From positions 289 through 64,288 of the forward strand of contig JAEUSP010000064.1 of NCBI GenBank assembly GCA_016788565.1: 64,000 nt of DNA, written 5' to 3'. How positions within the stretch are numbered: position 1 is the first letter of the stretch; each line of letters begins with the position of its first letter. Below the pieces are notes generated by a model. The model was not told where the DNA came from. It was given only the letters and a program-made list of their open reading frames with translations, and searched no databases. Positions 9,997 through 49,274 of the stretch are shown in pieces. The translations under genes and the position numbers were made by a program. This stretch comes from Chlorobiota bacterium. Lineage in GTDB: Bacteria > Bacteroidota > Ignavibacteria > OLB7.

Positions 9997-10593
9997 CTAA
10001 ACAACTAATTTGCCGATAGAGTATGTAAATAGGGATGATAGAGCTCCAAATACAACTCCTTGTCCAACTACCTCCCAGCCTGTTAATCCTTCGTCTATAG
10101 CAAGGGCTACTCCAACCGTAACTCCGACAACATCACCAACTGCAACCCCTATAATTGACATATCAGCAGGTGGATAATAATTTGGAGTACTATCACGCCA
10201 GTATTCGCTGCTTCCAAGTGCAACATTGCTAATCACTTTAAAAACAGAATTAACGACATTACTATCAATAGCAGCCGAATCATGGATTGTTTTAATTTGG
10301 GCAGCAAATACTGATAGATTTGTTGTCCCTCGTTCCCAATGATCAGTTGATGAATTATAATAATTATCAAAAACAGAAGCATATTGATATAGGTATGATT
10401 TTTCAGTTGAATTAATCAATCCTTGTGTCAAGAAGCTATCAGCAAATCGTCGGAACTGATTTGGCGATCTTAATTTCTCACCTGAATTTATAGCCGCATT
10501 TAATTGCGAATCCAAAAAATAATTGTGCCAAGCACCAGCTTGATCCAAGCCTTGTTGTGAAAAAAGGCTTCCAGACGGTTTTGGGTAGCTCAT
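9997..10593 (-). CDS. Hypothetical protein with C-terminal glycine-zipper hydrophobic helices. It could be a membrane-active bacteriocin or toxin-like protein; encoded in an AT-rich island
   Basis: There is no signal peptide. The C-terminus reads 'IIGVAVGDVVGVTVGVALA...GWEVVGQGVVFGALSSLF', giving GxxxGxxxGxxxG motifs. It is co-oriented with the gene at 8943..9881. Confidence 0.5.
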   Translation of the reverse strand: MSYPKPSGSLFSQQGLDQAGAWHNYFLDSQLNAAINSGEKLRSPNQFRRFADSFLTQGLINSTEKSYLYQYASVFDNYYNSSTDHWERGTTNLSVFAAQIKTIHDSAAIDSNVVNSVFKVISNVALGSSEYWRDSTPNYYPPADMSIIGVAVGDVVGVTVGVALAIDEGLTGWEVVGQGVVFGALSSLFTYSIGKLVV

Positions 10594-11028
10594 GACGTGT
10601 CTCCTTATGTAGGTCTATTGATGTTTTTCTCAACAATGTTGAGTTGTTTTTTTTCTCTTGCAAATTTTCTCATCTTCTCCATTTTCATTGGAGCAACTAG
10701 AACAATGAGAGAAATATCCCCCTCTTTGTTTTACTCTAGGGGGCTGTGCGGTTTATCTTCCGGTTGTAGTTAGAAGACCCTTTGCTTCATCAAACCCTAC
10801 CCGTGAAAGCTATCGCCCCGTTATAGTATATAACACCACTTTGCTCTGAACGGTCACATTAATTTTCTGTAATGAAGCATCGGGTTGACGATCTGTTATT
10901 GTCAGAATGTTCATTGCTCCGTAAGACGCTTCCCCCCGCTCCGTAAGACCTGGCGGCTACCTTGAATGGAGTTCAATGCAATTCCGCATTGCCAAACCAG
11001 ATATTCAAACCTAGCCGAACAACTAACT

Positions 11029-18023: not shown

Positions 18024-18039
18024 AAAAAACCGGCTCATC

Positions 18040-18250
18040 TCAAGTTATACTCGCACGAACGTGGTTTGCGACAAAACCCGCGCTGTCATTCCCGCGAAAG
18101 CGGGAATCCACACCACACCTGGCTGAGTAGAGTTTCGCAAACCAATTTGCGCCGAGTATAGTGTACAACGGCCACCGAATCCTGCCCCCGCTCATGCTGA
18201 GCCCGTCGAAGTATGAGCGGAGCCACCGAATATAGATGCTACGGATGCCC
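18040..18250. repeat. Intergenic repeat cluster: a palindromic 'ATTCCCgcgaaagcGGGAAT' element with flanking repeat arms (related to 29530-29645), then module C copy 3 (18185-18235)
   Basis: 'aacgtggtttgcgacaaaacccgcgctgtcattcccgcgaaagcgggaatcca' matches the reverse complement of 29585-29640. Module C is seen in the reverse orientation. Confidence 0.7.
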
Positions 18251-18341
18251 ACCTACCACGCAGGCTAACTGTAGCTGAGCCAAAACTTCTTGCAAACCAC
18301 TTTGTTTGGAGTAAAATCCGAACAAATAGCCAAACCCAACA

Positions 18342-18767
18342 ATGCCCTCATTTTGCATTACCGAGCGTGTCCGGTGGATTGATTGCGATGCCGCAAAAAT
18401 TATCTATTACGGCGCGTATATTCGGTTTTTTGAAATTGCCGAGACCGAGATGTACCGCTCGGTTGGCCTCCCCTACTCAGCCGCGTTCGATACCTTGAAG
18501 TGCTTCCCAATTCGCGCGGAATATCACTGTAATTACAAAACTCCTGCATTGTTGGATGACCTGATGGAAATTTCTATTTGGGTTAGCCATTGGGGAACAA
18601 CATCGTTCACAATCTCCTTCCGTTTTCTCCGTGCTGAAACTGATGTTGTGCTGGCGGAAGGATACTGCCGGTTGGTCACGGTTGGGATTCACGACAAGAA
18701 AAAAATGCCAATTCCTGATTTGCTTCGCCAGAAATTAGCACGATATTCGGGCGAAGTGGAAGAATAG
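18342..18767 (+). CDS. Acyl-CoA thioesterase, 4HBT/YbgC-FadM family
   Basis: Hot-dog-fold signature 'RVRWIDCDAAKIIYYGAYIRFFEIAETEMYRSVG'. Confidence 0.7.
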   Translation: MPSFCITERVRWIDCDAAKIIYYGAYIRFFEIAETEMYRSVGLPYSAAFDTLKCFPIRAEYHCNYKTPALLDDLMEISIWVSHWGTTSFTISFRFLRAETDVVLAEGYCRLVTVGIHDKKKMPIPDLLRQKLARYSGEVEE

Positions 18768-18773
18768 AAAAAC

Positions 18774-19997
18774 ATGAGTTCAGAGTCTGCAGATAAGACT
18801 ACAATACCGACGCAGATTTTTTTCACTACTCACATCCACACCATAACCACCACACGATTGCTGCGCATTGCTACCATCTGTTTTTCGGGAACTGTTGGCG
18901 GGCTTGAGCTTGCAACGCTTCGGCGTGCGGCGGAGCTTCAGGGAAATGGGCATCATGTCATCTCTATTTTGCCCAACTCCGCTGCAATTCTTGAACAGGC
19001 AAAGCGATTAGGAATCACCGCTACGGCTATCACACCACGCTTCTCCTATCTTGATATCCTTGCTGCGCGGAAGTTGCGTAAAATTTTAGACCGTGAGGAA
19101 ATAGACCTGCTGCTGGTTGCCCGAACTCGTGATCTAAGCACAGCAATGTTAGCTGCTGGCACCGGACGTGCGGTGGTGCTGTACCAACAAATGCAGTTTG
19201 GACAACGCAAAAAAGATGTATTTCACAATTGGGTGTATCGCCGCTTGGATGGATGTGTGGGAATTACTCACCGCCAGCGTGACCAGTTTATTCGATTAAC
19301 AAACTTAGCCCCAGAAAAAATCTCCGTTGTTCCATACGGGATACATGCGGATCATTTTTCACCGACGGTTATTCCTGCATCGGCTGCACGCGCAGAAATG
19401 GGCATACCCGACACTGCATTTTTAGTGGGAATTGTTGGTGGCTTTAATCCGGGAAAAGGGCAGCGGGAATTTCTTGAAGGGGTGAGGCTTGCTTGGCAGG
19501 AAGCCCCCAGCATCCGTGAACATTTATGGGCTGTCCTGGTTGGCGAGCGACCAACGGACGTTGGCCAATACACAACCGATCTGCGCGCCTTGCGTGACTC
19601 ACTCCCTTTCCGTGAGCGAGTACTTTTCCGCCCTTTTCTTAACGACCCCCGAACCGCCTACGCAGGTTTAGATGTATTTATCCTTGCTTCCCACTCCGAA
19701 ACGTTTGGCATGGTGCTGCAGGAAGCAATGGCGATGGGGGTTGCCTGCATCGGAACCGACGCGGGCGGCGTGCCGGAAATTATTGCCCACGAAGAGCGCG
19801 GGTTGCTGATTGCGCCGAATAACCCAAAAGCGATTGCCGATGCAATGTTGCGGCTATTTCACAATCCAGAGCTTCGCCAAACGCTTGCGGCAAATGCGCG
19901 GCAGTTTGTGCTGCGGGCGTATGATTCCCAAAAGCAGTATGTGGCGTTTCAAGAAGCGCTGGAGCAAGCCGCAGCAAGAAGAATCAAACGCCGGTAA
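18774..19997 (+). CDS. Glycosyltransferase family 4 (GT-B, group 1)
   Basis: C-terminal 'SETFGMVLQEAMAMGVACIGTDAGGVPEII' is the E-x7-E region. The N-terminal domain is 'GGLE'-type. The true start may lie downstream of 18774. Confidence 0.7.
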   Translation: MSSESADKTTIPTQIFFTTHIHTITTTRLLRIATICFSGTVGGLELATLRRAAELQGNGHHVISILPNSAAILEQAKRLGITATAITPRFSYLDILAARKLRKILDREEIDLLLVARTRDLSTAMLAAGTGRAVVLYQQMQFGQRKKDVFHNWVYRRLDGCVGITHRQRDQFIRLTNLAPEKISVVPYGIHADHFSPTVIPASAARAEMGIPDTAFLVGIVGGFNPGKGQREFLEGVRLAWQEAPSIREHLWAVLVGERPTDVGQYTTDLRALRDSLPFRERVLFRPFLNDPRTAYAGLDVFILASHSETFGMVLQEAMAMGVACIGTDAGGVPEIIAHEERGLLIAPNNPKAIADAMLRLFHNPELRQTLAANARQFVLRAYDSQKQYVAFQEALEQAAARRIKRR

Positions 19998-21599: not shown

Positions 21600-21710
21600 C
21601 GGCTTGTTGTTGTTAGTTCATGGTTCGTTGCAAAGAAACGATTGCGGATATTCTTCTTCGTTTGGCATTCCACTGACTGGTGGATTGTGGTCATTAGTCA
21701 TTAGTCATTA

Positions 21711-22087
21711 GTCAGTGGTCAGTGGTCAGTGGCAAGAACACATTCGCCATTTCGGCGGCTGTGCCATTCCCGACTCCCTCACTCTTCCTCATTCGACATT
21801 CGACAGTCAGTGGTCAGTGGCAAGAGCACATTCGCCATTTGACATTCGGCGGCTGTGCCATTCCCGACTCCCTCACTCTTCCTCATTCGACATTCGACAG
21901 TCAGTGGTCAGTGGCAAGAGCACATTCGCCATTTGACATTCGGCGGCTGCGCTATTCCCGACTCCCTCACTCTTCCTCATTCGACATTCGACAGTCAGTG
22001 GTCAGTGGCAAGAGCACATTCGCCATTTGACATTCGGCGGCTGCGCCATTCCCGACTCCCTCACTCTTCCTCATTCGACATTCGACA
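21711..22087. repeat. Tandem array, 4 copies of a 94-bp unit (first copy 96 bp and slightly divergent)
   Basis: The unit 'gtcagtggtcagtggcaagagcacattcgccatttgacattcggcggctg(t/c)gc(c/t)attcccgactccctcactcttcctcattcgacattcgaca' repeats head-to-tail at 21806, 21900 and 21994. The period is not a multiple of 3, which explains the frame-hopping pseudo-ORFs 21715..21936, 21722..22030 and 21855..22286. Confidence 0.85.
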
Positions 22088-22101
22088 TTCGGCATTTCCC
22101 C

Positions 22102-34027: not shown

Positions 34028-35896
34028 TCACCGGATAACCAGCAGCGGCAGCGTTGTGGTTCCCATGTTGCTGAACATGGTGCAAAAAAAATGTCCAGAA
34101 GGAAGAGCGGGGAGCAGAAGCTGAAGGCTTGTGGCCCCGGGTTGGATGGCGTTGGCACAAAGCTGCTTGCCGGAAGCATCGCTCACCACAATGCGTTGGC
34201 CTGCCGGTTGCGGTTCTGCGAACGCAATCACCACCACTCCGCTGGCGGCGTTGTAGCTGGCGCGAAATTGCCGTGTGGCAGCGGGGCCGCTCTGCTGAAC
34301 TTCTTCCTGAACTCCACTGGTTGCGGTGTTCCCAAACGCCCCGGGTGGTTGGTTCCCGTTTCGGAGCGCGCCGGTGTAATCGCGGGCCACGCTGTTGCTG
34401 AAATTTCCCGGCGGAGCTTCTGGGCGCGCGGGGCGGTCGCCGCCGGGGAAATCGGGGATGGGATAGGCGGTGATGCTCCGCAAAGGGCTTGCCGCCGGAA
34501 GCCGAAAATCCAGTTTGGAAGGATCAAGAAAATCTGGCTGCACGGTGTTGATGCTGTTCTGGGCCAGCAGCTGCGCTTGGTTGCACGTTGGGTTGCTGTT
34601 TTGGCATCCGGATTCATCCCCCAGCCCCAGCGAGTGTTCCGGCGGGCCGTTCCAGATCACGTTTCCACGGATGTTCAATCTGTCGTCGGCCAGCGCTGGG
34701 TTTGGCGCGTTCGATTCGGCAGGGTTCCCCGCAAACGGGCCGAAGATGGTGAAGTGCTGATATTGGCTTTGCACACCGGGCGGATTGCAGAAAATGTTGT
34801 TGAACAAATAGACGTTCCGGTTTGGGATGCGGATGTAGTTGTTTCCGTCGTCCACCACGGTGGTTCCCCAGCCGCCGGCGGCCAGGTAATCGGCGCAGTT
34901 TCCGCGCCCGTTGTCGCCCGGCTGGCCATCGCAACTTCTTCCGCCAAACACCGCCTCGAACAGGTGGCTTCGCACGCCGATTCGGTAGCAGGTGTTGTGG
35001 GCCATCAGAATGTTGTATCCCCCCTGAACTCCCAATGCCGCCCCTTCGGTATCGTGGATGATGTTGTTGATGACTTTCAGATCGTAGGCTTCGTAGTGAA
35101 TCCAGGGTGAGGTCATAAACTGGAATCCGGTCCCTTGCCCTGCGGTGAAGCCGCCGGTTCCTCCGTCGTAAATTTCGTTCGACTCCACGCGGAAATATGC
35201 CGAGCCGCCTTTCAGATAGATGCACCAATCGTTGGCGCGGTGGATTTTGGAATCAATGATGTGGCCATGCTGAACTCCAACAAAATCCACAGCATTATCG
35301 GTGGCCCCGCTGATGTCGCACCCTTCCAGATAGACGTGCTGTGATTGATTGATTTTCAGCCCTTCCTGCGGCCCTTGGTAATCGCGGATGTTGCCCGTGC
35401 CAATCACCGTCACGCCACGCAGCAGCAGATGGTTGCAGGCCTCGAAATGGAGTACATCGCCACCGCCGCCGGTGATGATGAGGTTCATCAGATAGAGGTA
35501 GCGGCAATCATACAAGTTCATATTTGGAAGGGTGACGGGGGGATAGCCCGGCGCGGTGGAAATCACCACAGGATGCTGCGCGCTGCCGTGGCGCGACTCC
35601 CAGTAGGTGGGCAACGTTTCTTCTGGATAATCCCCCGGCAGCAGCATAATTGCAAAGCCACGAGTAAGGGGAATGCTGCTGGGGATTCGGTTCCATGCTT
35701 CGCGCACCGTGCGGAGCGGCGCAACTTGGGTGGCGTTCGGGCTGGCATCGTTGCCGTTGGCGGGGCTCACCCACAGCGTATCCAATTCCGGGGTGCCGAT
35801 TTGGTAGCTGCGTGGCTCCATCTGCTGCGCGCTGGCGGCGGCCAGAGCAAGCAGCAGAAGAAGCATGGTGCAGCAGAAAATTCGGCGTAGAATCAT
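34028..35896 (-). CDS. T9SS-sorted secreted beta-helix protein, a paralog of 31447..33945
   Basis: Shared motifs with the neighbouring gene ('NNIIHDTEGAALGVQGGYNILMAHNTCYRIG' vs 'NNLLHDVTGTPLNVAGGYNVLIAWNTLYRV'). C-terminal domain ends '...SGHFFCTMFSNMGTTTLPLLVIR'. Signal peptide from the internal Met (MILRRIFCCTMLLLLLALAAASAQ). Confidence 0.7.
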   Translation of the reverse strand: MILRRIFCCTMLLLLLALAAASAQQMEPRSYQIGTPELDTLWVSPANGNDASPNATQVAPLRTVREAWNRIPSSIPLTRGFAIMLLPGDYPEETLPTYWESRHGSAQHPVVISTAPGYPPVTLPNMNLYDCRYLYLMNLIITGGGGDVLHFEACNHLLLRGVTVIGTGNIRDYQGPQEGLKINQSQHVYLEGCDISGATDNAVDFVGVQHGHIIDSKIHRANDWCIYLKGGSAYFRVESNEIYDGGTGGFTAGQGTGFQFMTSPWIHYEAYDLKVINNIIHDTEGAALGVQGGYNILMAHNTCYRIGVRSHLFEAVFGGRSCDGQPGDNGRGNCADYLAAGGWGTTVVDDGNNYIRIPNRNVYLFNNIFCNPPGVQSQYQHFTIFGPFAGNPAESNAPNPALADDRLNIRGNVIWNGPPEHSLGLGDESGCQNSNPTCNQAQLLAQNSINTVQPDFLDPSKLDFRLPAASPLRSITAYPIPDFPGGDRPARPEAPPGNFSNSVARDYTGALRNGNQPPGAFGNTATSGVQEEVQQSGPAATRQFRASYNAASGVVVIAFAEPQPAGQRIVVSDASGKQLCANAIQPGATSLQLLLPALPSGHFFCTMFSNMGTTTLPLLVIR

Positions 35897-35999
35897 TGGG
35901 CCAGTTCGGAAGCAGTGAATTGTTGATGAAGCCACATCCAGAATATGGCGTGCAGCGGTCACGTTTTTGGGGGGAAGTGGTGACGGGAAAATGGGGATT

Positions 36000-36295
36000 G
36001 CCAAATTTCCGCACGGAAGAGTGAAGAGTGAGGTGTGAAGAGTGAAATAAAGCCAAAGCGGGAAACCCACCAATGACTAACGACTAATGACTAATGACCA
36101 CCGCGAACGCAGCCCTCCGCTCATGCTGAGCCCCGTCGAAGTATGAGCGGAGCCACCGAACCGAGCCGATTTCACTACCTGCCCTCTCCGAAGCAAAGAG
36201 TGAAGAGTGAGGTGTGAAGAGTGAAATAAAGCCAAAGCGGGAAACCCCCCAATGACTAATGACTAACGACCAATGACCGTCCCCCAACTGTGGCA
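36000..36295. repeat. Composite intergenic element in a divergent promoter region: two direct copies of [module B + 'aaataaagccaaagcgggaaaccc' + module A heptamer run] flanking module C copy 4
   Basis: 'gaagagtgaagagtgaggtgtgaagagtgaaataaagccaaagcgggaaaccc..aatgactaa(c/t)gactaa...' occurs at 36018-36098 and at 36196-36290. Module C lies at 36105-36172. Confidence 0.8.
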
Positions 36296-36427
36296 TGTGA
36301 GTTCGGACACCGAGCGTCCGGTGTTGAAATTGGTGGGTGGTAGATTTGGCATACTTTCACTGCAACGCAATGCAGTTGGGCAACAAGCAGTTATTTTCCA
36401 TCAACTACTTCATCAGCAACACCGACC

Positions 36428-38401
36428 ATGAGCACCACTGAAACCACACTAACCACCAACGACATTCCCCTACACCGGCTACGCGAAATTGAGCGGATGT
36501 CGGTACGGGCATGGAATGTTTGCCAGAACAACAACCTCACCACGCTATCGGCATTGCTTCACCACTACCAGGCTCACGGAACGTTTGCCAAGTTCCGCCA
36601 CGCGGGCCGCCTAACCGAAACTGAGCTTATCAACATCTGCCGCAAATACTTGCAGGAAGCGAATGTTCAGCGATTGCAGAGCATCCAGAAAAAATTAGAT
36701 CGGCTTGATCTGAACGTCCCATCGCCCGATTGGTCCCTGTGGTCCCAGACTGACCTGACCAGCCTGAACAACGAACTGCACCAGCGGATTGAAAATTTCT
36801 CGACGGGGGCGAAAGACTTACTGCGGTTTATTGTTCCACCAGTGCACGCCAACATCCGCGCTTTTGATGACTATGTTAGCGCGCTTCAGCAGAAAGTGGG
36901 GTTCACCCCAGCCGACAAATTGACCTTGCAAGAACTGCAAGCAGCAAGGGCTGAGGTCATTCAGTTATCAAAGCAGTTCAGCACCTTTTTACCGGAGGAG
37001 GAATCGTTCCAGCAATTCGCCACACTCTGGCGCGAGCGTTTCGGGTTTACGGCAGAGGAGTTATCGGGCTATCGCCAGGCCTTTATTGCACGGCAATTTC
37101 CGCTATTCCATTTTTTGAACGACCTGCTGTTTGTGCGTGGCAAGGGGTTGCCCGATCACATCCAGAAAACGATGACAGGCCGCTACTCATTCCGGTTAGG
37201 CGACCAGCAACGGCAACTGGAAAGCATTGCCAATGAAGTTGGATTAACACGCGAACGGATTCGCCAGATTGCGGGAACAATCCCCGGGCGTATCCAAACG
37301 GTTGTTGCATCGCTTGGGCCAATAGCTGAGTACCTCTGCTACCAACCACTGTTCTACAAAGGGCGCGACCTGCTGATTATTGATGATGCCTACGCCCAAT
37401 ATGTCAATGCCAGCGAAAGCGTCTCCTTCACCCCAGCGTTCATCGCGGTTGTTCTGGAGACGTTCTTGAAGGAACATTACGACCGGTTGGAAGAAGACTT
37501 CGACGGAGCCACCGACTACTTGGTAAGCAGCGAACTTACCGAGGCGTTTGACTTCGACGCATTTTTGCGGCGGATGGCCGAGCGGCTGGAGCAACGAATA
37601 ACCCAGCCATATAAACTGAACTTGATGCAAGAGGTTGAAGCGAATCTGAAAACTGCTTCGCGGCTTCAGTTGCGGCGGGTGGTTGCTGTCTGCGAACTGT
37701 TGGCAGGTAAGGAGTTTGGGCTTGCGGCAACCGCTGCTGGCGAAATACTGTTCCAGCGGAACACAAAAAAGCGGCTGGATGAGCATATCGCTGATTTGTT
37801 GTTAGAGGTTGGGACCCCGCTGCATGTGGAAGAATTATCGGCACGATTGAACCAAGCGTTCCCCGAGCTGGAAACCACTCCCGAATCTGTACGCGGCACA
37901 ATGCTGCGGTTCCCCGAACGCTTTGCCCGATACAACACCGGCAGCACCTACGGCCTTAGCGAATGGGAAACAGCGGGGGAAGGGCTTAAAAGAGGGACGT
38001 TTGCTGATATTGCCGAAGAATTTTTAGCAGCAAGCGATTGCCCCCGCCATTGGACCGATATTGCCCAGCATGTGATGCGATACCGCACAACAACCGAGCG
38101 GACAGTGTTCGGCACCCTGAAAGCCGACATGACGGGGCGGTTCCATTTTTACAATGGTGGGATGGTGGGATTATCGCAAAAGCAGTACGAAGGGATTGAC
38201 ACAAACTACCGCGTGATTGGCGGCCCCACCTACCAGAATTTGCGCACAGTCATTCAGGATATGGGGGGGAATGTGGAGACTTCCAAGTTGGTGGTCTATT
38301 GTATGCTCCATTATCGCCTGCCGGAGCAGCAAGCAGTGCATTTTGTCCATCGCGTTTTGGCGGGGGATCGGCAAGAATCTGAGGCGGGGGTGGAGAGTTA
38401 G
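36428..38401 (+). CDS. Hypothetical 657-aa protein with an N-terminal RNA-polymerase alphaCTD-like HhH domain and an internal sigma-70 region-4-like HTH; putative transcription-associated regulator
   Basis: 'LREIERMSVRAWNVCQNNNLTTLSALL....FAKFRHAGRLTETELINI' resembles alphaCTD ('[23 protein letters not shown]...LGKKSLTEIKDV'). 'LESIANEVGLTRERIRQIAG' resembles the sigma region 4.2 core 'VTRERIRQIE'. Confidence 0.5.
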   Translation: MSTTETTLTTNDIPLHRLREIERMSVRAWNVCQNNNLTTLSALLHHYQAHGTFAKFRHAGRLTETELINICRKYLQEANVQRLQSIQKKLDRLDLNVPSPDWSLWSQTDLTSLNNELHQRIENFSTGAKDLLRFIVPPVHANIRAFDDYVSALQQKVGFTPADKLTLQELQAARAEVIQLSKQFSTFLPEEESFQQFATLWRERFGFTAEELSGYRQAFIARQFPLFHFLNDLLFVRGKGLPDHIQKTMTGRYSFRLGDQQRQLESIANEVGLTRERIRQIAGTIPGRIQTVVASLGPIAEYLCYQPLFYKGRDLLIIDDAYAQYVNASESVSFTPAFIAVVLETFLKEHYDRLEEDFDGATDYLVSSELTEAFDFDAFLRRMAERLEQRITQPYKLNLMQEVEANLKTASRLQLRRVVAVCELLAGKEFGLAATAAGEILFQRNTKKRLDEHIADLLLEVGTPLHVEELSARLNQAFPELETTPESVRGTMLRFPERFARYNTGSTYGLSEWETAGEGLKRGTFADIAEEFLAASDCPRHWTDIAQHVMRYRTTTERTVFGTLKADMTGRFHFYNGGMVGLSQKQYEGIDTNYRVIGGPTYQNLRTVIQDMGGNVETSKLVVYCMLHYRLPEQQAVHFVHRVLAGDRQESEAGVES

Positions 38402-38482
38402 GGAGACGGATTATTTGGAGATTTCGGAATTTGCATCAGCAACAGCAATGCCATGGTGGTGATTGTGGAGTTGGTGTAAGCA

Positions 38483-38522
38483 CAAAAAAAAGCCAGCACA
38501 CTTTTGTCTGCTGGCTTTTGTT
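38483..38522. terminator. Bidirectional rho-independent terminator
   Basis: 'aaaaaaaagccagca' and 'tgctggcttttgtt' flank a 'cacttttgtc' loop. An A-run lies upstream and a T-run downstream, between convergent genes. Confidence 0.6.
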
Positions 38523-38545
38523 AACGTAGGATTTTGCATTCTACG

Positions 38546-39280
38546 TCAATCAATCTTTGCTTGTTCTATTACTCGGTCATCAATAATCGCATTGTTGGTT
38601 TTTAAATCAGCATCATTCATTCCTGTTGCCAGTATTCTCAATTTTATTTTGACTTGCTTATCTGTGAATTTGCTATTGCTTCTGGCGCGGATCAGAATGT
38701 TCTTTTGTTCGTTAAACTTCACCGTTGAGTCTTGATTCTTGAAGTCAAAATGAATCTTCGCTAATGTGCTTAGAGTTGCAAATGTTGGAGGGAAAAGGGC
38801 GTAAGTCAAAGGAAAGTCTTCCTGATTTTCAGAATCAGGAACTAAGCTAACAACAACGGATAGCATACCTCCATTAGGTGAGTTTGGGGATGTTAGATTC
38901 TTTGCATAGTACGTCCCTGACACATCCAAATTCATTGATAAAGTGTCATCAATACTGAGTTGAAATGGCTGGCTATAGCAATAAAAAATTTCTGGATTTT
39001 TTTTATGATGAATAAGCTGAGGTTCAATTGGTATGGACTGCTGAACACCAGAAGAAGTAGTAATCACAACAGAGCCTACTTCTGTTGTGAAATTGAATTT
39101 TACCTCTTTTTTATCAAAGAAGTGATGGTATGCTCCTGCTACTGTCACTCCATTTGTAAATTTTGTAGAAGTAGTCTGACCGAAGCAAAGGGTCACTCCT
39201 AAAAATATAGAAGCAACGCTCACGATGGAGCAAAGAGTTGTTTTCATTGATCGTTCAGTTGTGTTTTGAAGATTCATCAC
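38546..39280 (-). CDS. Hypothetical secreted protein (AT-rich island; paralog of 39277..39990)
   Basis: Signal peptide. Local GC is roughly 38%. It shares 'VQ(Q/R)SI..(E/Q)P', 'F(Y/S)(C/W)YS(Q/E)PF(Q/E)L', 'SG(T/S)YY' and 'KI(K/R)LR(I/L)' blocks with the adjacent gene. Confidence 0.6.
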   Translation of the reverse strand: MMNLQNTTERSMKTTLCSIVSVASIFLGVTLCFGQTTSTKFTNGVTVAGAYHHFFDKKEVKFNFTTEVGSVVITTSSGVQQSIPIEPQLIHHKKNPEIFYCYSQPFQLSIDDTLSMNLDVSGTYYAKNLTSPNSPNGGMLSVVVSLVPDSENQEDFPLTYALFPPTFATLSTLAKIHFDFKNQDSTVKFNEQKNILIRARSNSKFTDKQVKIKLRILATGMNDADLKTNNAIIDDRVIEQAKID

Positions 39281-39990
39281 TGCAAATCTTCATCTACTTT
39301 GTTGTCAGTATGAAATGGGTTTACGTTCTGAATTTTCAAATCGGAAGTGTGTATTTTGCTGGAATACACGCCTAAGCGAAGCCTAATTTTTTTAGAAGAA
39401 AGGCCTTTTCTCATTTTTGAATTATCTATAACAATAGGCTTTGTTTGATTGAATGCTATTGGTTGTGCATTGTGAAACTTCACAACATATTCTTCCCTAG
39501 TGCTCAAAACATGATCTTGCTGAGTTTCACTACTTTTACGTAGGGGATTGTCTTCGATTAAGTTGACATAAACAAGAAACTCATCTCCGTTCAAAATATC
39601 TGAAGATTTAGGGAGTGTACTGGTGTTGTAGTAGCTTCCCAAAATGTGCATATCAGCCTTAACGGTGTCAGTAGTGAATAATTCAAATGGCTCACTATAC
39701 CAATAGGAAAGCTCTGAATCTGTACTTCCAACAGGTTTAGGCTCTGGCTGCATTGTGATGGAGCGTTGTACTCCATCAGGGCTTGCTATTTGAATTTTTC
39801 CAAATTCAATCTCAAATGTGAATGTACAGTTCTTTGTACTATGTTCCCCTTTTATTAAAAGGCTATTAGCAATCTCCTTGCTTGTGGTATTTATACCAGT
39901 ATTGCCACTTACCCCGAGTACCAGAAAAATGGCCGGTATAAAACTGAGTAATTGTTGGAATTGGGGGAACGTCTGCATGGTAATCCGCAA
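39277..39990 (-). CDS. Hypothetical secreted protein (AT-rich island; tandem paralog)
   Basis: Signal peptide (IFLVLGVSG). It overlaps the downstream paralog by 4 bp and has the same conserved blocks. Confidence 0.6.
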   Translation of the reverse strand: MRITMQTFPQFQQLLSFIPAIFLVLGVSGNTGINTTSKEIANSLLIKGEHSTKNCTFTFEIEFGKIQIASPDGVQRSITMQPEPKPVGSTDSELSYWYSEPFELFTTDTVKADMHILGSYYNTSTLPKSSDILNGDEFLVYVNLIEDNPLRKSSETQQDHVLSTREEYVVKFHNAQPIAFNQTKPIVIDNSKMRKGLSSKKIRLRLGVYSSKIHTSDLKIQNVNPFHTDNKVDEDLQ

Positions 39991-40267
39991 TGATGAAATG
40001 ATTGATGGACAGTGTTGGGTTCATCTCGTAGCGCAAAGGTAATATAAAAGCAATCATACAACAGTGCTTGATAGATATTTCGGTTTTGGCGGGAGAGCAG
40101 CAAGAATCTGAGGCGGGGGCGGAATAAGCCAGCCAACAATTCGGGCGCGGGGCCAGCTGGCTCCGCGCCCGATTCCCACAATGCCGGACCGGATTGTTCC
40201 GGCATCATACTGCCGCACAACGTGGCGCGGCCATTGGATGTTAGCGGCCAGGGGTGGCCGCTATCTG

Positions 40268-40783
40268 TTAGTTCCGCAGCGTAACTGGGGCGGAGGTTTT
40301 CTCGGTGTTCAGCCGGTAGAACCACTCCCCTGCTGGCATTTTGCTGGCATCGAATTTCACGGTGTGGTCGCCGGCGTTCAACACGCCATCGTAGGCCGTG
40401 GCAATGTACCGCCCGTTGGCATCCACCAGCGTCACCGTCACCCGCGAACGCTCATCAATGTGGACGCTGACGCTTGCTTGCTCATGCTGGCTAACCGGCT
40501 TGGTGCTGACTTTGTAGAACCATTCTCCGGCAGGCAGCGTTGCTCCGTCGAACGCGATGGTGTGATCTCCAGCATCTAAAATCCCATCATGGACGGTCGC
40601 GATCTCCTTCCCCTGTGCGTCGGTGATTATCACCCGAACATCCGAGCGTTCCTCCACCGAGACATAAACAACTTCTTTGCCAGCCCCTTTGGCGGCTGTG
40701 TTTGCTTGTGCATAGCCCGGTGCGGTGCTTGCAACGGTGGCCGATAGCAACAGCATCGGCAGTAGTAGTTTCGAAAATTTCAT
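40268..40783 (-). CDS. Small secreted protein made of two tandem T9SS-CTD/FlgD-Ig-like ~57-aa repeats and no other domain
   Basis: Signal peptide (LLPMLLLSATVASTAPGYAQA). The repeats are 'VRVIITDAQGKEIATVHDGILDAGDHTIAFDGATLPAGEWFYKV' and 'VTVTLVDANGRYIATAYDGVLNAGDHTVKFDASKMPAGEWFYRL'. Confidence 0.6.
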   Translation of the reverse strand: MKFSKLLLPMLLLSATVASTAPGYAQANTAAKGAGKEVVYVSVEERSDVRVIITDAQGKEIATVHDGILDAGDHTIAFDGATLPAGEWFYKVSTKPVSQHEQASVSVHIDERSRVTVTLVDANGRYIATAYDGVLNAGDHTVKFDASKMPAGEWFYRLNTEKTSAPVTLRN

Positions 40784-40959
40784 AGCAATCCTCTCCCTGG
40801 TTAAAAGGCTGTGGTTAGTGAAAACGGTGGTTAATGAATTCGCTGGGTGCGGGCGGCCCTACGCCAGCAGCATAGGTGGGTTGCAGAAGGCCGCAGAAAA
40901 AAAAATTAAGCAAGAATGGAGTGGGTGGGAAGAACAACGGGGGATCAGCATGAGGGGAG

Positions 40960-41270
40960 GGCCGGGGCAGTGGTCAGTGGTCAGTGGTCAGTAGTCAGTG
41001 GTGGGTGGTTGGTTTCCGACTTTGGCTTCATTTCACTTTTCGCTTGGGTGAGGGCCGGCGGTGAAAGCGGCTTGGTTCGGTGGCTCACGCTCATACTTCG
41101 ACGGGGCTCAGCATGAGCGGAGGGCGGGATTCGGTGGCCTCATCTCTCACCTCTATTTCCTACTTCCTTAGTCAGTAGTCATTAGTCATTGGTCATTAGT
41201 GAGTTTCCGGCTTTGGCTTCATTTCACTCTTCACACTTCACACTTCACTCTTCGCTTGGAAGCAGCTTGG
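40960..41270. repeat. Composite intergenic element: module A run (40969-41005), module B ('ttcatttcacttttcgcttgg'), module C copy 5 (41073-41135), a second module A run (41168-41205) and a second module B (41215-41262)
   Basis: Direct matches to the 36.0-36.3 kb and 6.6-6.8 kb elements. Confidence 0.8.
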
Positions 41271-41274
41271 TTCG

Positions 41275-43530
41275 TCAGAACCTCACATCAATCTGCACGG
41301 CTATCGAGCTGCTGAGTTGGCCGTTGATTTCTTGCAGGCTGCCTTCGCTGATTACTGTGCGGTCGCGGTACCAGGTCTCGCCATACTTGGCCGCGATTGT
41401 TCCCCACACGGTTGGCGACCACTGCGCAAACAGATATACCCGTTGCCCTTGGCCGTACAGCGCAAGGTTGGAGAATTTTCCCGCGACATCTTGCTCGAAC
41501 TCACGCAGGGCAACGTCAAAATTATCGGCATTGAACAGGGCGATGCGCCCGCCAAACGATAGCCCCGTGGTTGGCCGCCAGCGCAGATCCAGAAAGGTGA
41601 GTACGCCGTTAGCCGCTGGGCGGAGCGTGGTATACCCCACATACTTCCGCTCGAACCGCGCACGCAGCTGCACGCGCCCACCAACCGAAGCGTAGCCCGC
41701 CTCAATTCTTCCCGATGCTGTGGTTTTGTCGAACAATGCGCGGGGGGCGCGTCCGGGCGCGTCGGATGGTGTCGTCGCATCGCCTTTCACCTCCTGCTGG
41801 AATCGGCAGGAGAGGCTGAACCGCGGGGAGAGCGACCAATCGAATTGCAGCATCCCGTCGGCCCCGCTGATGGGGAAGGGGATGGAGTAGCTTCGTTGCG
41901 GGAAACGGTACAGGTCGAAGTATGCCGAAAAAATCCCCTGCGGAATCACCGGAACTTTCACCCCAATGTAGATTCCCCGCTCGTTCTGCTGCTGGCGCGC
42001 GGATTCCCCAAACCCGATGCCATGCGGCGTGTAAAATCCCGGATCAACGTTGCGCCCGGCAATCACAATCGCGGCGTTGTCAATGGTTCCACCAATTCCT
42101 GCAATCATCCCGATGTTGGCGTTCGCCCCGTGCGCGGCTTCGCCAAACAGGTAGAAATCCCCGAACAAATAGCGTCCATCCAAACTAAAAAGCTGGAAAT
42201 TTTGGCCGGAGAAATCGTACGGGAGATCGGGCTGGATTGCGACGCTGTACCGAGCATCGTAGCCGGTGATCCCAACGTGTCCTTGCTCAAACCCGTACCG
42301 TGCCGAAGCTCCAACCACCCGCTCGTCCAGCCCGCCGCTGCGGCGCAGCTCGGTGCGGGTGCGGTGGTAGCCGTCGGTTCGGATGGAAGTGACCTCCTCG
42401 GCAAGCGTATCCCCCCCAGCATTTGGGAATTGGCCAAACCCCGGCTGGCCAAACAGAGCATCGAACGAGCGATACGAGCCGAACACGCTTCCGCTGAACC
42501 CTTTGCGGGCGCGCCCCGATTCGTTGAAGCTGACGGCGCCGCCACGGAAAAACGCCACCTCACCCGATGAGCGGTACGGGGTGATCCCACGCCCGGCTTT
42601 GAACGGAGCATCAATCACCGCACCATTTTTTGCCCCGCCAAAGCTGCTCCAGAGTGCCAAGCCTTGCCCGTACTCGGCGGTGAAATCGCCAACTATCAAC
42701 CGAACTGGCCCAACCGTTGCCGTCCCGCTTCCGCTGATGAATGTTCCCAGCTTCTGCTCAACGGAGCCGGCCGGCTGGGCCGGGTCCACAAGCTCGTAGT
42801 TGGCGTAGCTGCGCGCAACCGTGTCGCTGAACATGAACGGCTCGCCAGCATCTTTCTCGAACGTGAGGTTCAGCTCGTTATCGCCGTACTTCAGGTTCAA
42901 TCGGGTCAGCAGCGCGTCGCGGGGTCCAAGGTAGGAAGGGCCAAGTGAGATGGTGTCCACCGCAAGCGAATCGCCGGTTGCGGGGTCGCGGCGGGTGACA
43001 CGGCGGAACAGGTCATCGCCATATCCACGGCGCGGCTGAAGGTCGCGGAACCACGAAGAACGGATATCAACCTGCAGCGGAAGGCCGGGGTGGTCAAGCT
43101 CACTCATTGGCCGGGCAAGCGTGGTGTAGGTTCGCAGCATCAGCCATTGTTGTGCCGATAGCAACGCCGGCAGCTCCTCCTCAAACTGCTCGAACTCTAC
43201 CGGGTTCAGGCTATCCACAGCGGTCAGGATTGCCACAGCATCGGGGAGTGTGATCCCGGGAAGCCGCGTCAGAATATCGGCAGTGGTGGTGTACAGGTTG
43301 ATCGGGTTGTGGCGGTAGTGTTCTAACTCATCCAAAAAATCTGGGGCACTGCTCTCCTCCTCGCTGGCCGACTCTACCGTGCGTTCAATCTCAATTTCTA
43401 ATCCATCCGGAACCCCTTCATCGGCCTGGGCCAGCGCTTGATTGCACAGGCAGGCAATCAACAGTATGGCGCACAGCCCATGCTTCACCACTGGGAAAAT
43501 AGATGCAGGGAAAATAGATTCGGCTACCAT
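41275..43530 (-). CDS. Predicted outer-membrane beta-barrel protein with an N-terminal HhH-like segment
   Basis: Signal peptide (ILLIACLCNQALAQ). 'ILTRLPGITLPDAVAIL' is helix-hairpin-helix-like. The long barrel region ends in a terminal Phe ('VQIDVRF'). The start was chosen at the internal Met (MVAESIF...) to minimise overlap with the upstream gene. Confidence 0.5.
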   Translation of the reverse strand: MVAESIFPASIFPVVKHGLCAILLIACLCNQALAQADEGVPDGLEIEIERTVESASEEESSAPDFLDELEHYRHNPINLYTTTADILTRLPGITLPDAVAILTAVDSLNPVEFEQFEEELPALLSAQQWLMLRTYTTLARPMSELDHPGLPLQVDIRSSWFRDLQPRRGYGDDLFRRVTRRDPATGDSLAVDTISLGPSYLGPRDALLTRLNLKYGDNELNLTFEKDAGEPFMFSDTVARSYANYELVDPAQPAGSVEQKLGTFISGSGTATVGPVRLIVGDFTAEYGQGLALWSSFGGAKNGAVIDAPFKAGRGITPYRSSGEVAFFRGGAVSFNESGRARKGFSGSVFGSYRSFDALFGQPGFGQFPNAGGDTLAEEVTSIRTDGYHRTRTELRRSGGLDERVVGASARYGFEQGHVGITGYDARYSVAIQPDLPYDFSGQNFQLFSLDGRYLFGDFYLFGEAAHGANANIGMIAGIGGTIDNAAIVIAGRNVDPGFYTPHGIGFGESARQQQNERGIYIGVKVPVIPQGIFSAYFDLYRFPQRSYSIPFPISGADGMLQFDWSLSPRFSLSCRFQQEVKGDATTPSDAPGRAPRALFDKTTASGRIEAGYASVGGRVQLRARFERKYVGYTTLRPAANGVLTFLDLRWRPTTGLSFGGRIALFNADNFDVALREFEQDVAGKFSNLALYGQGQRVYLFAQWSPTVWGTIAAKYGETWYRDRTVISEGSLQEINGQLSSSIAVQIDVRF

Positions 43531-46166: not shown

Positions 46167-48080
46167 TTGATGAGCCGCACGTTGTTCGCCTGCCTGTTGC
46201 TTCCGTTGTCGCTGTTTTCTGGGGTTATCCTGGTTTCCTGCGGCAGCAATCCAGTTGACGCTGTTTCCAACAAAATCATTGCTGGCGAAAGCCGTGCGGT
46301 GGTCGTAAGCACTGTTCCGCCCTCGGGAGGAACCATGGTTGTGAATGTGCAGGGGGATTCGTTGAATGGGATGGAACTAACCGTCCCCAGCGGTGCATAT
46401 TCTGATGCCCGCACCTTCCGTATCTCTGCTGCACCAATCCAAAGCCACCAGTTGGGAAGCAACTGCAATCCGGTTACTCCATTAATCACCATCGAAAATG
46501 GGGGAGGATATGCTGATGAATTTATGACCCTCACCATCCCCATCTCCGTTCCCGACAACCACTTTGCAATGGCGTTCCTGTTCGATGACGTAACGGGCGA
46601 AATGGAAGGACTGCCGTTGGTGGAATCCACCAGCGATCACGTGAAAATTTTCACCGCAAATTTTGCCCATTCTGATATTACCGCGCTGAAACGGCGGTTG
46701 GCTTCCGGCAGTGCCAGCAGCGGGCCAAGCCGCTCCAGAATTTTTGTTTCATCCATCGAAAAAAATCTGCTTGAAGGGGCCAACGAATCCACCTTCCGCC
46801 CGGGTCTGGACGACTGGCAGTTCACCAACTACGGCTCGTATGCTGCCCCGGACGGGCATTGTGCTGGGCAAAGCCTTGCGGCAATGTGGTATCATAACAA
46901 GAAACGAATAAACGGCAGATTATATGGGCGATACGATAACGATGGCACGCGGAAAACTCCCACAATTTGGCAAGATGATGTTGGCGGCTACAAGTTCTGC
47001 TCGGTGCTGCAAAACGATATGGAATGGAATTCGTTAAGCCGAAAATTATTTTCTACAGTGCAGAGTACAATCCCAGATGTTATTACCTACTACGCTGCAT
47101 CCTACAGTTTTTTGCTGTTGCACCGCCCTCAGTTCATTGGAATTGCGAACGATACTGCAGGACATGCGGTGATTGGATATGCCATTGGTGATGGCAATAT
47201 CTATGTTGCTGACCCGAACTACCCGGGCGATGTCACGCGCCGTATTCCCTACGCGAACGGCAAATTCGGAACCTATTTTTCTGGCAGTAACGCGGCACAA
47301 ACTGGTGTGCCATTTCCCGTTATTCGTTTTTTTGGTGAGAGCGCGTTGATTGATTACTCCACCATTGAATCACGCTGGGCTGAGGTTGCTTCTGGCGAGA
47401 TCGGCAATGGGCAGTTTCCCGAATACACCGTAAAGGGGATGAACGACGCTGGAACATTTGTGCCGCTGACCAATGGTTTTACTATCAAAGGGAACACGCT
47501 GAATTTTGATATTTCTTCCACCACCTCATTGAAAATTGCAACGGTTTTTGATGAATCGGAACGTGTTCTACCAATCATCAAAGAGGCAGTTCAGCTTCCG
47601 CAGGGAATGCAGCGTGTTGGATTTTATGTCACTAATAGAACGAACGATTGGACTGGCTTTACATGGGTGCAAGTAAAAGTAGAAGGCACGGATAATCCAG
47701 CACCGCCGCCACCCACAACCGGATTATCCTTTAACGGCGAACCTTACGTTATTGGGTTAATTAACTATACGCTTGACTCTGGGCTGAGTCTCATCTTCTA
47801 TCCAAGTTTTGATGTCTTAACGTGGTTCCAGATTGGGGTAAAGCCATTTGTTGGGGTTGGGGCGTACACTGCTACCCGAGGAGATAATTACGTGGCATAT
47901 TTTGATACTCGTGGAGCCACGCCAAGCTTTAACTACAGGACAGACGAACAGCACACAGCAAAGGTAGAAATTACTCAGTTTGATGATAATTTTATTGTGG
48001 GCAAAGCAACTGGATCAATGAAAGATTTAGTCACCTTAGAAGTGCGGACATTCACGTTTGTTTTTCGAATTGAACGTTAA
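46167..48080 (+). CDS. Hypothetical lipoprotein (637 aa)
   Basis: Signal/lipobox (LLLPLSLFSGVILVSCGSNP). No recognised domain. Confidence 0.55.
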   Translation: MMSRTLFACLLLPLSLFSGVILVSCGSNPVDAVSNKIIAGESRAVVVSTVPPSGGTMVVNVQGDSLNGMELTVPSGAYSDARTFRISAAPIQSHQLGSNCNPVTPLITIENGGGYADEFMTLTIPISVPDNHFAMAFLFDDVTGEMEGLPLVESTSDHVKIFTANFAHSDITALKRRLASGSASSGPSRSRIFVSSIEKNLLEGANESTFRPGLDDWQFTNYGSYAAPDGHCAGQSLAAMWYHNKKRINGRLYGRYDNDGTRKTPTIWQDDVGGYKFCSVLQNDMEWNSLSRKLFSTVQSTIPDVITYYAASYSFLLLHRPQFIGIANDTAGHAVIGYAIGDGNIYVADPNYPGDVTRRIPYANGKFGTYFSGSNAAQTGVPFPVIRFFGESALIDYSTIESRWAEVASGEIGNGQFPEYTVKGMNDAGTFVPLTNGFTIKGNTLNFDISSTTSLKIATVFDESERVLPIIKEAVQLPQGMQRVGFYVTNRTNDWTGFTWVQVKVEGTDNPAPPPPTTGLSFNGEPYVIGLINYTLDSGLSLIFYPSFDVLTWFQIGVKPFVGVGAYTATRGDNYVAYFDTRGATPSFNYRTDEQHTAKVEITQFDDNFIVGKATGSMKDLVTLEVRTFTFVFRIER

Positions 48081-48119
48081 TAACAATTTTAGTGCATCCA
48101 CCATGAATCAGTAAAAACG

Positions 48120-49274
48120 ATGAAACAATCCTCCTCTAAAAACAAATCACGGGAAGCATCAGCTTCACTCCATGAAGTCTTGCATGACGCTACTGGCCAA
48201 TTTTCAGTGATAGATATTCTGTCGGCTATTAATGACCTTCTGAAAAAGCAATCATGGAGTGAAGCGTTAAAAGAAATCATTCAAGAGGCTGAAACCATTG
48301 AGCCAGTTCATATTGACCTTGCGTTGCGTGCGCTCATTGATAAGCCAGACCACGAACGCGCTGAAAAATTAAACGGACTAACAGGCTATTTGCGTAGCCG
48401 AATATCTAACCCGACCCGCTGTGCGATTATTACCACTATTGCTCATTACCCTCCTATTTTCAGCGCACAGGAGCTGCTCCGTATTGCCAGTGACCAAAAT
48501 GATGATCGTGAGGTTCGGCTAACAGCATTGCGTGCATTGGCAAACAGCATTGCTGATTCGACAGTGTTCATCAGCCTGCACAATCTTATTGATCCTGAGT
48601 TATTCCGGACAAAAAACTTTTCAGAACAGGATGTCATCTGGGCGATTGCGGTGCTAAATGTTCTGGAGGCTCATCCAGCACAAATTTCTGGAAAGGCATT
48701 AACCATTGTGGAGTCGCTTGTTTATGCCCAAGACTTACGGTTGTGCCGCCGTGCTTTAGAAGTCGCTGGAACGTTGGGTGAAATTGATGCTATCGAACGG
48801 TTGTGCATGGCGGTACTTAGAAGACCTGAGTTGCAGAAATCGCTTGCCACAGCAATACAGCGGATCAGCAACAAGCCGATCAGCCTGCGCCATCTGCGTT
48901 GGGAAAATTTTGAAGAGTTGATGCGGCAGATGCTGCGAGGAATGGGGCATTTTGCAGTAGAGGTGACGCAAGCCTCGTATGATAACGGCGTAGATGTCAT
49001 TTCTAAAAGAAGCGATGGCGACGGAGAGGAGGCAGTAGTTGTGGTGCAATGCAAGTTGCGCTATCAAGGGAATATCAGCAGAGAAGATGTTGAGCATTTA
49101 CGAGATGCAATGCAGCAGCATAAAGCAAAAGAAGGAATCCTGATTACGACAGGAGGATTCTCGCGGGATGCCAAGGAGTATCAAGAGCAAAATAAATTCA
49201 TTCGGTTGTTCGACAAGAAAGAATTGCTACAACGGCTTGACAAAGTTTTTGGAGAAGGAAGGTATAAAATCTAA
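48120..49274 (+). CDS. HEAT-like repeat protein fused to a C-terminal Mrr-type restriction endonuclease catalytic domain (PD-(D/E)xK)
   Basis: The C-terminal ~120 aa read 'LMRQMLRGMGHFAVEVTQASYDNGVDVISKR...VVVVQCKLRYQGNISREDVEHLRDAMQQHKAKEGILITTGGFSRDAKEY', which matches the Mrr_cat topology (..D...D/E.VQCK.. then 'G.lvTTs.Ft..A'). The N-terminal region is leucine-rich HEAT/PBS-lyase-like helical repeats. Confidence 0.6.
   Translation: MKQSSSKNKSREASASLHEVLHDATGQFSVIDILSAINDLLKKQSWSEALKEIIQEAETIEPVHIDLALRALIDKPDHERAEKLNGLTGYLRSRISNPTRCAIITTIAHYPPIFSAQELLRIASDQNDDREVRLTALRALANSIADSTVFISLHNLIDPELFRTKNFSEQDVIWAIAVLNVLEAHPAQISGKALTIVESLVYAQDLRLCRRALEVAGTLGEIDAIERLCMAVLRRPELQKSLATAIQRISNKPISLRHLRWENFEELMRQMLRGMGHFAVEVTQASYDNGVDVISKRSDGDGEEAVVVVQCKLRYQGNISREDVEHLRDAMQQHKAKEGILITTGGFSRDAKEYQEQNKFIRLFDKKELLQRLDKVFGEGRYKI

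Follow-up and report, generated by a model that had tools for sequence, protein, structure and literature searches.

ORFans are AT-rich, real genes with raised nonsynonymous diversity (PMC3514957), and hotspots of horizontal gene transfer that lack mobile-element genes were described by Oliveira et al. 2017 (PMC5635113). The locus analysed here is of this already known kind, an accessory islet of the ORFan type in a turnover hotspot, and it encodes an undescribed protein family. It lies in a 64,000-nt stretch of DNA from a Chlorobiota bacterium (GenBank assembly GCA_016788565.1, contig JAEUSP010000064.1, positions 289 to 64,288 of the forward strand), which is referred to as the window. Two neighbouring minus-strand genes, A and B, occupy a segment of low guanine-cytosine content (GC) at the 3′ end of a gene encoding a 657-aa protein. 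In agreement with the ORFan type, A and B are AT-rich, short, narrowly distributed and constrained with a raised rate of nonsynonymous substitution (dN), and the occupancy of their site is variable. We estimate at about 60% the probability that A and B form a small accessory cassette of ancient exported jelly-roll paralogs, which was copied from a locus adjacent to a thiolase gene and inserted into a hotspot.

The site of insertion is defined by the following features of the window. Numbers beginning with P and L are labels of this analysis for related proteins and for related loci or contigs, respectively, and L001-L005 belong to the same organism as the window and are thus uninformative about an empty site.

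36428..38401, plus strand: gene of the 657-aa protein, the last codons of which are the insertion target; its product has a weak helix-turn-helix (HTH) similar to sigma-70 region 4.
38354..38394, plus strand: left copy of a 41-nt direct repeat, which now serves as the 3′ end of the 657-aa gene (…VLAGDRQESEAGVES*).
38395..40082: inserted segment of low GC, which measures 1,688 nt from one repeat copy to the other and 1,729 nt if one copy is included; it is delimited by the GC profile, the direct repeat and the empty sites of L009 and L010.
38402..38479, plus strand: degraded 3′ end of a thiolase gene (GDGLFGDFGICISNSNAMVVIVELV*), immediately past the new stop codon of the 657-aa gene.
40083..40127, plus strand: right copy of the direct repeat with an in-frame TAA, the remains of the 3′ end that the 657-aa gene ancestrally had (VLAGEQQESEAGAE*), now separated from the gene.
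40141..40172: perfect palindrome of 16+16 nt, TCGGGCGCGGGGCCAG/CTGGCTCCGCGCCCGA (inverted repeat I4), the terminator that the 657-aa gene and the convergent FlgD_ig gene have in common in genomes with an empty site.
40268..40783, minus strand: gene of a 171-aa protein with FlgD_ig and type IX secretion system (T9SS) tail matches, the conserved right flank of the site.

The two repeat copies (38354-38394 and 40083-40123) are identical in 37 of 41 positions (90%), share a 20-nt identical core and start 1729 nt from each other. Their positions coincide with both GC transitions, and they are the sole pair of their sequence in the 64-kb window (repeat family D16). Read in the frame of the 657-aa gene, the right copy encodes VLAGEQQESEAGAE followed by a stop codon, and its GAATAA ending is that of the L009 gene. 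Since the right copy ends like the gene in L009, it represents the detached end of the ancestral gene, and the 1,688 nt between the repeats are inserted DNA. The site is empty in L009 and L010, which bears out an insertion relative to related genomes, the check that the initial annotation had proposed. In L009, the ortholog of the 657-aa protein (77% identical) is followed by about 145 nt with the same palindromic terminator and by the convergent 171-aa FlgD_ig/T9SS-tail gene, without an island. The downstream arrangement is the same in L010, in which the ortholog is 66% identical. In the window the island follows the 657-aa gene, and from position 40124 rightward the terminator and the FlgD gene are those of L009. 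The palindromic terminator is kept in L009, L010 and L019. The 657-aa protein has only five clusters in a collection of 5.8 billion proteins.

The GC content in a 200-nt sliding profile is 0.34-0.42 from about position 38450 to 40050, compared to 0.51-0.64 on either side. The computed profile excludes a genome-average GC content, and the region lies far below its surroundings, as was noted initially. The GC content at third codon positions (GC3) is 0.33 in A and 0.35 in B, whereas it is 0.62-0.70 in four neighbouring genes. Therefore, the bias is present at the nucleotide level and is not an effect of amino-acid composition.

The thiolase remnant points to the source of the inserted DNA. The intact thiolase C-terminus in L006 and L012 reads GLAGICIGGGEATAVIVEMV*, and the remnant matches the stop region of the L006 thiolase gene in 21 of 22 nt, with the homology upheld by a four-way alignment. 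The scan of the window for a thiolase gene returned only the remnant at 38402-38479. In the metagenome-assembled genome (MAG) SJ842 (GCA_020850315.1), the A-type ortholog P0009, 58% identical to A, is located next to an intact thiolase gene, at its 3′ end and in convergent orientation. The stretch of the window from 39251 to 38425, which contains A, the terminator behind it and the remnant, is collinear with L012 7997-8846 (69% over 863 nt). Locus L006 carries the B-type ortholog P0003 (60% identical in amino acids and 75% in nucleotides over 756 nt) in the same placement relative to the thiolase gene, and L021 has the same arrangement as L006. Because the insert contains a thiolase remnant and family members lie beside intact thiolase genes in SJ842 and L006, the A/B cassette appears to be a copy of a thiolase-adjacent locus inside the same clade, which took with it the shared terminator and the final stretch of the thiolase gene, about 78 nt long. 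In L012 (SJ842, JADZEY010000017.1), positions 7131-7577 hold a mosaic thiolase fragment located across the A-type gene from the intact thiolase gene. In this fragment, codons 1-52 and 239-295 of the neighbouring thiolase gene are duplicated at 97-99% identity and fused to unrelated sequence, and thus the L012 island, too, has direct repeats of a host gene on its flanks. The search for repeats resembling attachment (att) sites around the L006 island gave only chance-level 12-nt matches.

The left junction of the insert is common to the window and SJ842. The two share the 657-aa gene ending GAGAGTTAG, the gene end …VES*, an identical 12-nt filler and the thiolase remnant up to GCACAAAAAAGCCAG. 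The SJ842 remnant contains an 11-nt deletion and is followed, beyond GCACAAAAAAGCCAG, by unrelated AT-rich DNA. To the right of the site, SJ842 keeps the FlgD gene and the terminator up to …CGCGCCCGAATTGTTG, and different AT-rich cargo follows. The remnant and the left junction have diverged between the window and SJ842 to about the same extent as the flanking gene. Synonymous divergence (dS), calculated like dN/dS by the Nei-Gojobori method, between the window and SJ842 is 0.67 for the 657-aa gene and 0.53 for the FlgD gene; the corresponding values between the window and L009 are 1.8 and 0.98. The window organism and SJ842 are therefore sisters. The best reading of the shared junction, although not proven, is a single insertion in their common ancestor, with the cargo later replaced in SJ842. 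Alternatively, the window organism and SJ842 acquired related elements at this site independently of each other. The dS between the A orthologs of the 657-aa locus in the window and the thiolase locus in SJ842 is 0.86, near the divergence of the hosts, which fits a duplicative copy made at that time within the lineage.

Contigs L019 and L007 stop within the SJ842 cargo, and the cargo between the 657-aa and FlgD genes is therefore incomplete. A 31-nt inverted repeat lies inside this cargo at L019 11016-11046 and 11112-11142 and at the end of L007; it could be an artefact of the assembly, a genuine hairpin or a miniature inverted-repeat transposable element (MITE). The SJ842 MAG (IT211_*) is labelled Armatimonadota and the window MAG (JNJ94_*) Chlorobi/Chlorobiota. 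Their syntenic proteins are 77-79% identical, SJ842 has T9SS-type neighbours, and one of the two phylum labels is probably wrong.

The insert contains the two genes and their putative transcription signals.

38485..38522: hairpin with an A-run and a T-run on its sides (inverted repeat I1), the predicted intrinsic terminator that ends the B-A operon and that would act in both directions at the source locus.
38546..39247, minus strand: open reading frame (ORF) A, an A-type family member of 233 aa (stop codon within the coordinates).
39277..39978, minus strand: ORF B, a B-type family member of 233 aa (stop codon within the coordinates).
40034..40061, minus strand: candidate Bacteroidota-type promoter for B-A (TTG, 17 nt, TAccTTTG), found by motif search within the insert; the B start codon follows 55 nt downstream.

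Two neighbouring minus-strand ORFs are present as first described, with different extents. The lengths of 244 and 237 aa given initially are those of the longest ORFs (38546..39280 and 39277..39990, both on the minus strand). The 4-bp overlap reported between A and B needs an upstream GTG that no ortholog supports. A starts at ATG 39247 (MKTTL), according to the orthologs P0009 and P0010 and the NCBI protein MBL7987810.1 (233 aa), and B starts at ATG 39978 (MQTFPQ), according to P0002/MBL7987811.1 and the ortholog P0003. These starts give 233 aa for each protein and a spacer of 29 nt between the genes. The NCBI annotation (JNJ94_07095 to 07105) names every product 'hypothetical protein'. The pairwise comparison of A and B by BLASTP gave 28% identity across 222 aa (E=6e-20), which upholds the proposed paralogy, and the shared blocks VQ.SI..P, YxYSxPFxL, GxYY and KIxLRL are seen in the alignment. 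Because a terminator is located 3′ of A and a candidate promoter upstream of B, both inside the insert, the cassette appears to be a self-contained transcription unit. TAnnTTTG is the Bacteroidota promoter consensus. A simple sigma-70 promoter scan, which is ill-suited to the host phylum, gave no result above shuffled expectation, and a simple terminator scan left the hairpin at 38485-38522 unflagged due to its loop of about 10 nt.

A and B are ancient and constrained genes. The dN/dS ratio is 0.31 between A and its SJ842 ortholog, 0.31 between A and the L015 gene, and 0.28 between B and P0003 of L006. The ratio of about 0.3 indicates that A and B are protein-coding and under purifying selection. 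Their dN of 0.23-0.26 is about twice the 0.12-0.14 of the flanking genes across the same split. The divergence between A and B is saturated in dS, and other genomes contain separate orthologous groups of the A type (window A, P0009, P0010 and P0012) and of the B type (window B, P0003 and P0011). For these reasons, the duplication long predates the island, and the initial view of a pair duplicated and diverging on the island gives way to an ancient split. A motif spanning the B stop and the A leader, TGATGAATC[T/C]TTCAAAAC, is still found in L006, where it follows a B gene without partner, and in L015, where it precedes an A gene without partner; this indicates that the B-A order is ancestral and that the partners were lost. 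In L022-L024, three independent contigs representing a fourth genomic context, the A-type copy is split by a frameshift. L015, from a third lineage, contains two more small ORFs (152 and 138 aa, at 1184-2083) with signal peptides, cysteines and no known family, which follow the A-type gene within its AT-rich pocket.

The family is rare. A word-indexed profile search of 5.8 billion proteins returned three family clusters and an exhaustive HMMER search of 1.84 billion representatives returned five, and the family totals about seven sequence clusters, labelled 'hypothetical' wherever they are named. No relatives were found in viral contigs scanned with the A-type and B-type alignments or in two scans of Joint Genome Institute (JGI) metagenome contigs. 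Each detected member belongs to a related metagenomic genome of the Fibrobacteres-Chlorobi-Bacteroidetes (FCB) type with T9SS-type neighbours, and neither low-GC genomes nor viral contigs are among the sources of these members. The search thus defines an undescribed, clade-restricted protein family, divided into A-type and B-type subfamilies, from an uncultured lineage about which little is known. A is polymorphic in the population of the window organism (V48I, P94S, N118D, T120K and others, in many combinations), and B is nearly invariant, with singletons only. The A alleles P0027-P0040 contain at least four common nonsynonymous polymorphisms, which occur in most pairwise combinations across metagenomes and therefore imply recombination or recurrent mutation within the 700-nt gene. 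Relative to strain contigs, the ratio of nonsynonymous to synonymous differences is 4:2 in A and 3:15 in the 657-aa gene (Fisher p=0.04, based on small numbers). The excess of nonsynonymous polymorphism in A reflects either relaxed constraint or diversifying selection.

The sequences of A and B matched zero families in Pfam, NCBIfam and PADLOC, and nothing significant was found in PHROGs (best E=0.079) or in a sequence profile search of the PDB (best E=0.31). The AlphaFold2 model based on seven family sequences is all-beta with 13 strands, a mean predicted local distance difference test (pLDDT) score of 70.8 and a predicted template modelling (pTM) score of 0.71. The core blocks reach 79-90, and residues 1-29 are disordered. 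An earlier, weaker model from four sequences agrees with it. The topology is that of a jelly-roll beta-sandwich, whose matches, to TNF-like, lectin and capsid folds, are no more than generic, so that the prediction fixes only the class of the fold; of the two folds suggested initially, it supports the beta-sandwich and not the lipocalin. All members have an N-terminal hydrophobic core (maximum Kyte-Doolittle (KD) value of 2.5-2.9, by inspection and not by a dedicated predictor). The A-type N-termini contain K/R in the n-region, have a net charge of +1 to +3 and carry C-F-G or C-L-A before the mature part. A and B are probably exported by the Sec pathway. Several specific classes were rejected. 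Inspection identified no lipobox characteristic of a lipoprotein, since A-type members have L/I/M before the cysteine (VTLC, VMIC, IIMC) and B-type members have no N-terminal cysteine. The C-terminal sorting domain of T9SS cargo (Por_Secre_tail / TIGR04183) is absent from A and B and has a match in the neighbouring 171-aa protein. A polymorphic toxin or toxin-immunity pair does not agree with two equally sized paralogs that each carry a putative export signal and lack a toxin domain. No evidence links A and B to effectors, adhesin repeats or immunity, the repertoires of which such a family was initially called typical. The TNF/C1q-like and lectin or carbohydrate-binding module (CBM) jelly-rolls may resemble them in the predicted all-beta jelly-roll, the probable extracytoplasmic location and the size of the core domain. 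Judged from fold class and export signals only, A and B may be extracytoplasmic binding modules for a carbohydrate or another ligand, a tentative assignment that we hold at clearly less than even odds.

The low GC content is a property of the whole family. All members occupy GC troughs, with a GC3 of 0.26-0.35 in hosts with a GC3 of 0.5-0.7. Since this holds for each member in each host, the low GC is a persistent family trait within one clade. The dS of 0.86 between A orthologs is near that of the hosts (0.5-0.7), and still the GC3 has not been raised. A GC3 of about 0.3 has thus been kept over about 0.9 synonymous substitutions per site in hosts with a GC3 of about 0.65, which cautions that low GC is not proof of recent foreign origin. 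It is conceivable, but improbable, that the AT-richness of the family is actively maintained, for example for silencing, rather than being a mere leftover of transfer.

The following history would account for the locus. The cassette consists of its own candidate promoter, the genes B and then A, and a terminator, and it is predicted to encode two anciently diverged Sec-exported jelly-roll proteins of about 205 residues. It was probably copied from a locus in which the family is convergent to a thiolase gene, and brought with it about 78 nt of the thiolase 3′ end. The insertion would have hit the 657-aa gene two to three codons ahead of its stop, at the short spacer that separates it from the convergent FlgD_ig/T9SS gene, and most likely took place in the ancestor that the window organism shares with SJ842. 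In the process, 41 nt of the target would have been duplicated, so that the 657-aa gene kept a near-identical C-terminus and its old 3′ end was left as a relic on the far side. Because the insert contains no recombinase gene, the route was most likely recombination at short homology, either by a Campbell-type single crossover of a small circle or by a recombinase acting in trans. Direct repeats of a host segment are the expected scar of such a crossover, or of a trans-acting integrase that uses att sites sharing an identical core of 20 nt. A third possible route is insertion by template switching during replication, and from sequence alone the three routes would appear indistinguishable.

Several observations weigh against this history. 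Only A and B are located between the repeats, and no recombinase or transposase domain was found there or in the neighbouring genes, so that the mechanism of insertion is one that we infer. No circular form was seen. The 41-nt duplication is too long for the target duplication of a transposase, and the two copies have four mismatches. The right-hand 41-nt repeat is absent from SJ842, and a single ancestral event then needs a later replacement of the cargo. Most of the related loci are metagenome contigs, from MAGs and Logan, in which misassembly is possible. The B-type N-termini have a hydrophobic core with an uncharged n-region, and due to the latter export seems less certain for B-type than for A-type members; the signal peptides noted initially are thus putative, with n-, h- and c-region features in the A type, and in the B type with the hydrophobic core but no positive n-region.

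The strongest competitor of the proposed history, which we consider possible but rather unlikely, is a non-autonomous site-specific element similar to a cis-mobilizable element (CIME). The 41-nt repeats would then be attL and attR, the integrase would be encoded elsewhere, and the C-terminus of the target would be restored upon integration. This explanation agrees with the direct repeats that bound the low-GC segment on either side and share a 20-nt identical core, the insertion into the last codons with in-frame restoration of the 657-aa gene, the unoccupied site in L009 and L010, the other cargo at the SJ842 site, and the HicAB-like pair 3′ of the L011 ortholog. However, the insert and the adjacent genes encode no integrase, the right-hand repeat is absent from SJ842, the thiolase remnant points to a capture of ordinary chromosomal DNA, and no att-like repeat comparable to these occurs at the islands of L006 and L012. 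Other mobile elements were rejected. An insertion sequence (IS), transposon or MITE would not agree with the 41-nt duplication, the lack of terminal inverted repeats at the ends of the insert and the lack of a transposase. The two terminators account for all inverted repeats found at the insert, and there is neither an attC-like structure nor intI, as would be expected for an integron cassette.

A recent transfer from a distant AT-rich donor would explain the low GC as the composition of the donor and the pair as an imported module of effectors, adhesins or immunity proteins. The sharp trough in GC and GC3, the insertion relative to L009 and L010, and the presence of the family in at least four genomic contexts speak for such a transfer. 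Yet all detected members are in related FCB-type genomes, none of them low-GC or viral, and the thiolase fragment of the insert is homologous to the clade's own thiolase. Furthermore, the remnant and the left junction are common to SJ842 at about the divergence of the flanking gene, and the GC3 of the A orthologs has not risen despite a dS of 0.86, near the 0.5-0.7 of the hosts. No evidence of a distant AT-rich donor was found, and we regard this origin as improbable. The horizontal acquisition proposed in the initial annotation stands insofar as the segment is inserted; the low GC as a sign of a foreign donor does not, given the thiolase remnant, the sharing with SJ842 and the family-wide low GC3. 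AT-rich ORFans are often ascribed to phage, and small viral capsids of jelly-roll fold as well as fibre or needle domains of phages are among the best structural matches, as if the jelly-rolls were akin to capsid, tail-fibre or receptor-binding modules of a decayed prophage. With no relatives on the scanned viral contigs, we consider a phage remnant very improbable. That A and B are spurious ORFs, open by chance in AT-rich non-coding DNA, is suggested by the lack of a database family and is hardly credible. AT-rich DNA is rich in stop codons, and long ORFs are unexpected there; the frames are kept at 42-61% amino-acid identity in four other genomes with a dN/dS of 0.28-0.31; the AlphaFold2 core is confident; and the terminator and candidate promoter are in place. 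The dN/dS of about 0.3 rules this explanation out.

The insertion site is empty in L009 and L010, contains A and B in the window and other cargo in SJ842, and in L011 a HicA/HicB-like pair lies directly 3′ of a 56% identical ortholog of the 657-aa protein. Judged from these sequences, the spacer 3′ of the 657-aa gene behaves as a gene-turnover hotspot, a label based on three or four states from five genomes. It is conceivable, but quite improbable, that a dedicated cassette-exchange site, free of an integrase or served in trans, follows the 657-aa HTH gene and duplicates the 3′ end of its target. The conserved 657-aa DNA-binding protein could then itself be involved in such an exchange. If true, the locus would be an integron-like platform for small AT-rich cassettes in an uncultured Chlorobiota-type clade. 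The locus is unusually legible, since the thiolase fragment marks the source, the 41-nt duplication the target, and the outgroups the empty site.

Composite repeat blocks of about 270 nt are located at 36008-36278 and 40960-41262, about 150-180 nt upstream of the 657-aa and FlgD_ig genes, respectively. They are inverted copies (84-93% complementary) composed of heptamer arrays (GTCAGTG/TCATTAG), a 'AAAGCCAAAGCGGGAAAC' unit and a hairpin unit, CGCTCATACTTCGACGGGGCTCAGCATGAGCG. Units of these blocks also occur at 6380-6444, 6621-6685 and 18184-18230, and three strain assemblies end at 36249, inside the block at 36008-36278. A search of 35800-41500, including the blocks, against Rfam gave no match. 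The blocks could be elements similar to repetitive extragenic palindromes (REP) or MITEs, or a shared regulatory leader. The same heptamer arrays accompany three tandem copies of a 94-nt unit (97-99% identical) at 21677-22090 (D8/D9).

Elsewhere in the window, another AT-rich island at about 8850-10950 contains two minus-strand ORFs of 312 aa (with a signal-like N-terminus) and 198 aa, with GC3 of 0.30 and 0.24. They have no matches in Pfam, NCBIfam, PADLOC or PHROGs and are unrelated to A and B, and no direct repeats flank the island (8.85-10.95 kb). A very long coding region at about 1300-6000 has a periodicity of 51 nt (17 codons), with dozens of diverged NTAVG-type repeats (D1-D7), and probably encodes a giant repeat or adhesin-like surface protein. 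Milder GC dips (0.45-0.49) at 47000-49000 and 18000-19000 may be further accessory segments.

The comparison with described systems places A and B closest to the accessory genes outlined at the beginning. Like the ORFans of the E. coli type (PMC3514957), they are short, AT-richer than their host and narrowly distributed, with conserved coding. They also share with these ORFans the elevated dN (0.23-0.26 compared to 0.12-0.14 in neighbouring genes), the excess of nonsynonymous polymorphism in A, and the occurrence of pseudogenised or truncated copies. They differ in that the source locus is traceable through the thiolase remnant and that they form a tandem pair of ancient paralogs. As in the hotspots of horizontal gene transfer (PMC5635113), the site is a fixed spot between conserved genes that is empty or variably filled and has no integrase or transposase, whereas the 41-nt duplication of the end of the flanking gene is a scar that is not general there. 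Integrative islands that target the 3′ ends of genes, and CIMEs, resemble the A/B insert in the direct repeats, the insertion into the last codons and the in-frame replacement of the C-terminus. In contrast to them, the insert is 1.7 kb long, lacks a recombinase and carries a fragment of an unrelated chromosomal gene, and the repeat of its site is absent from the sister genome.

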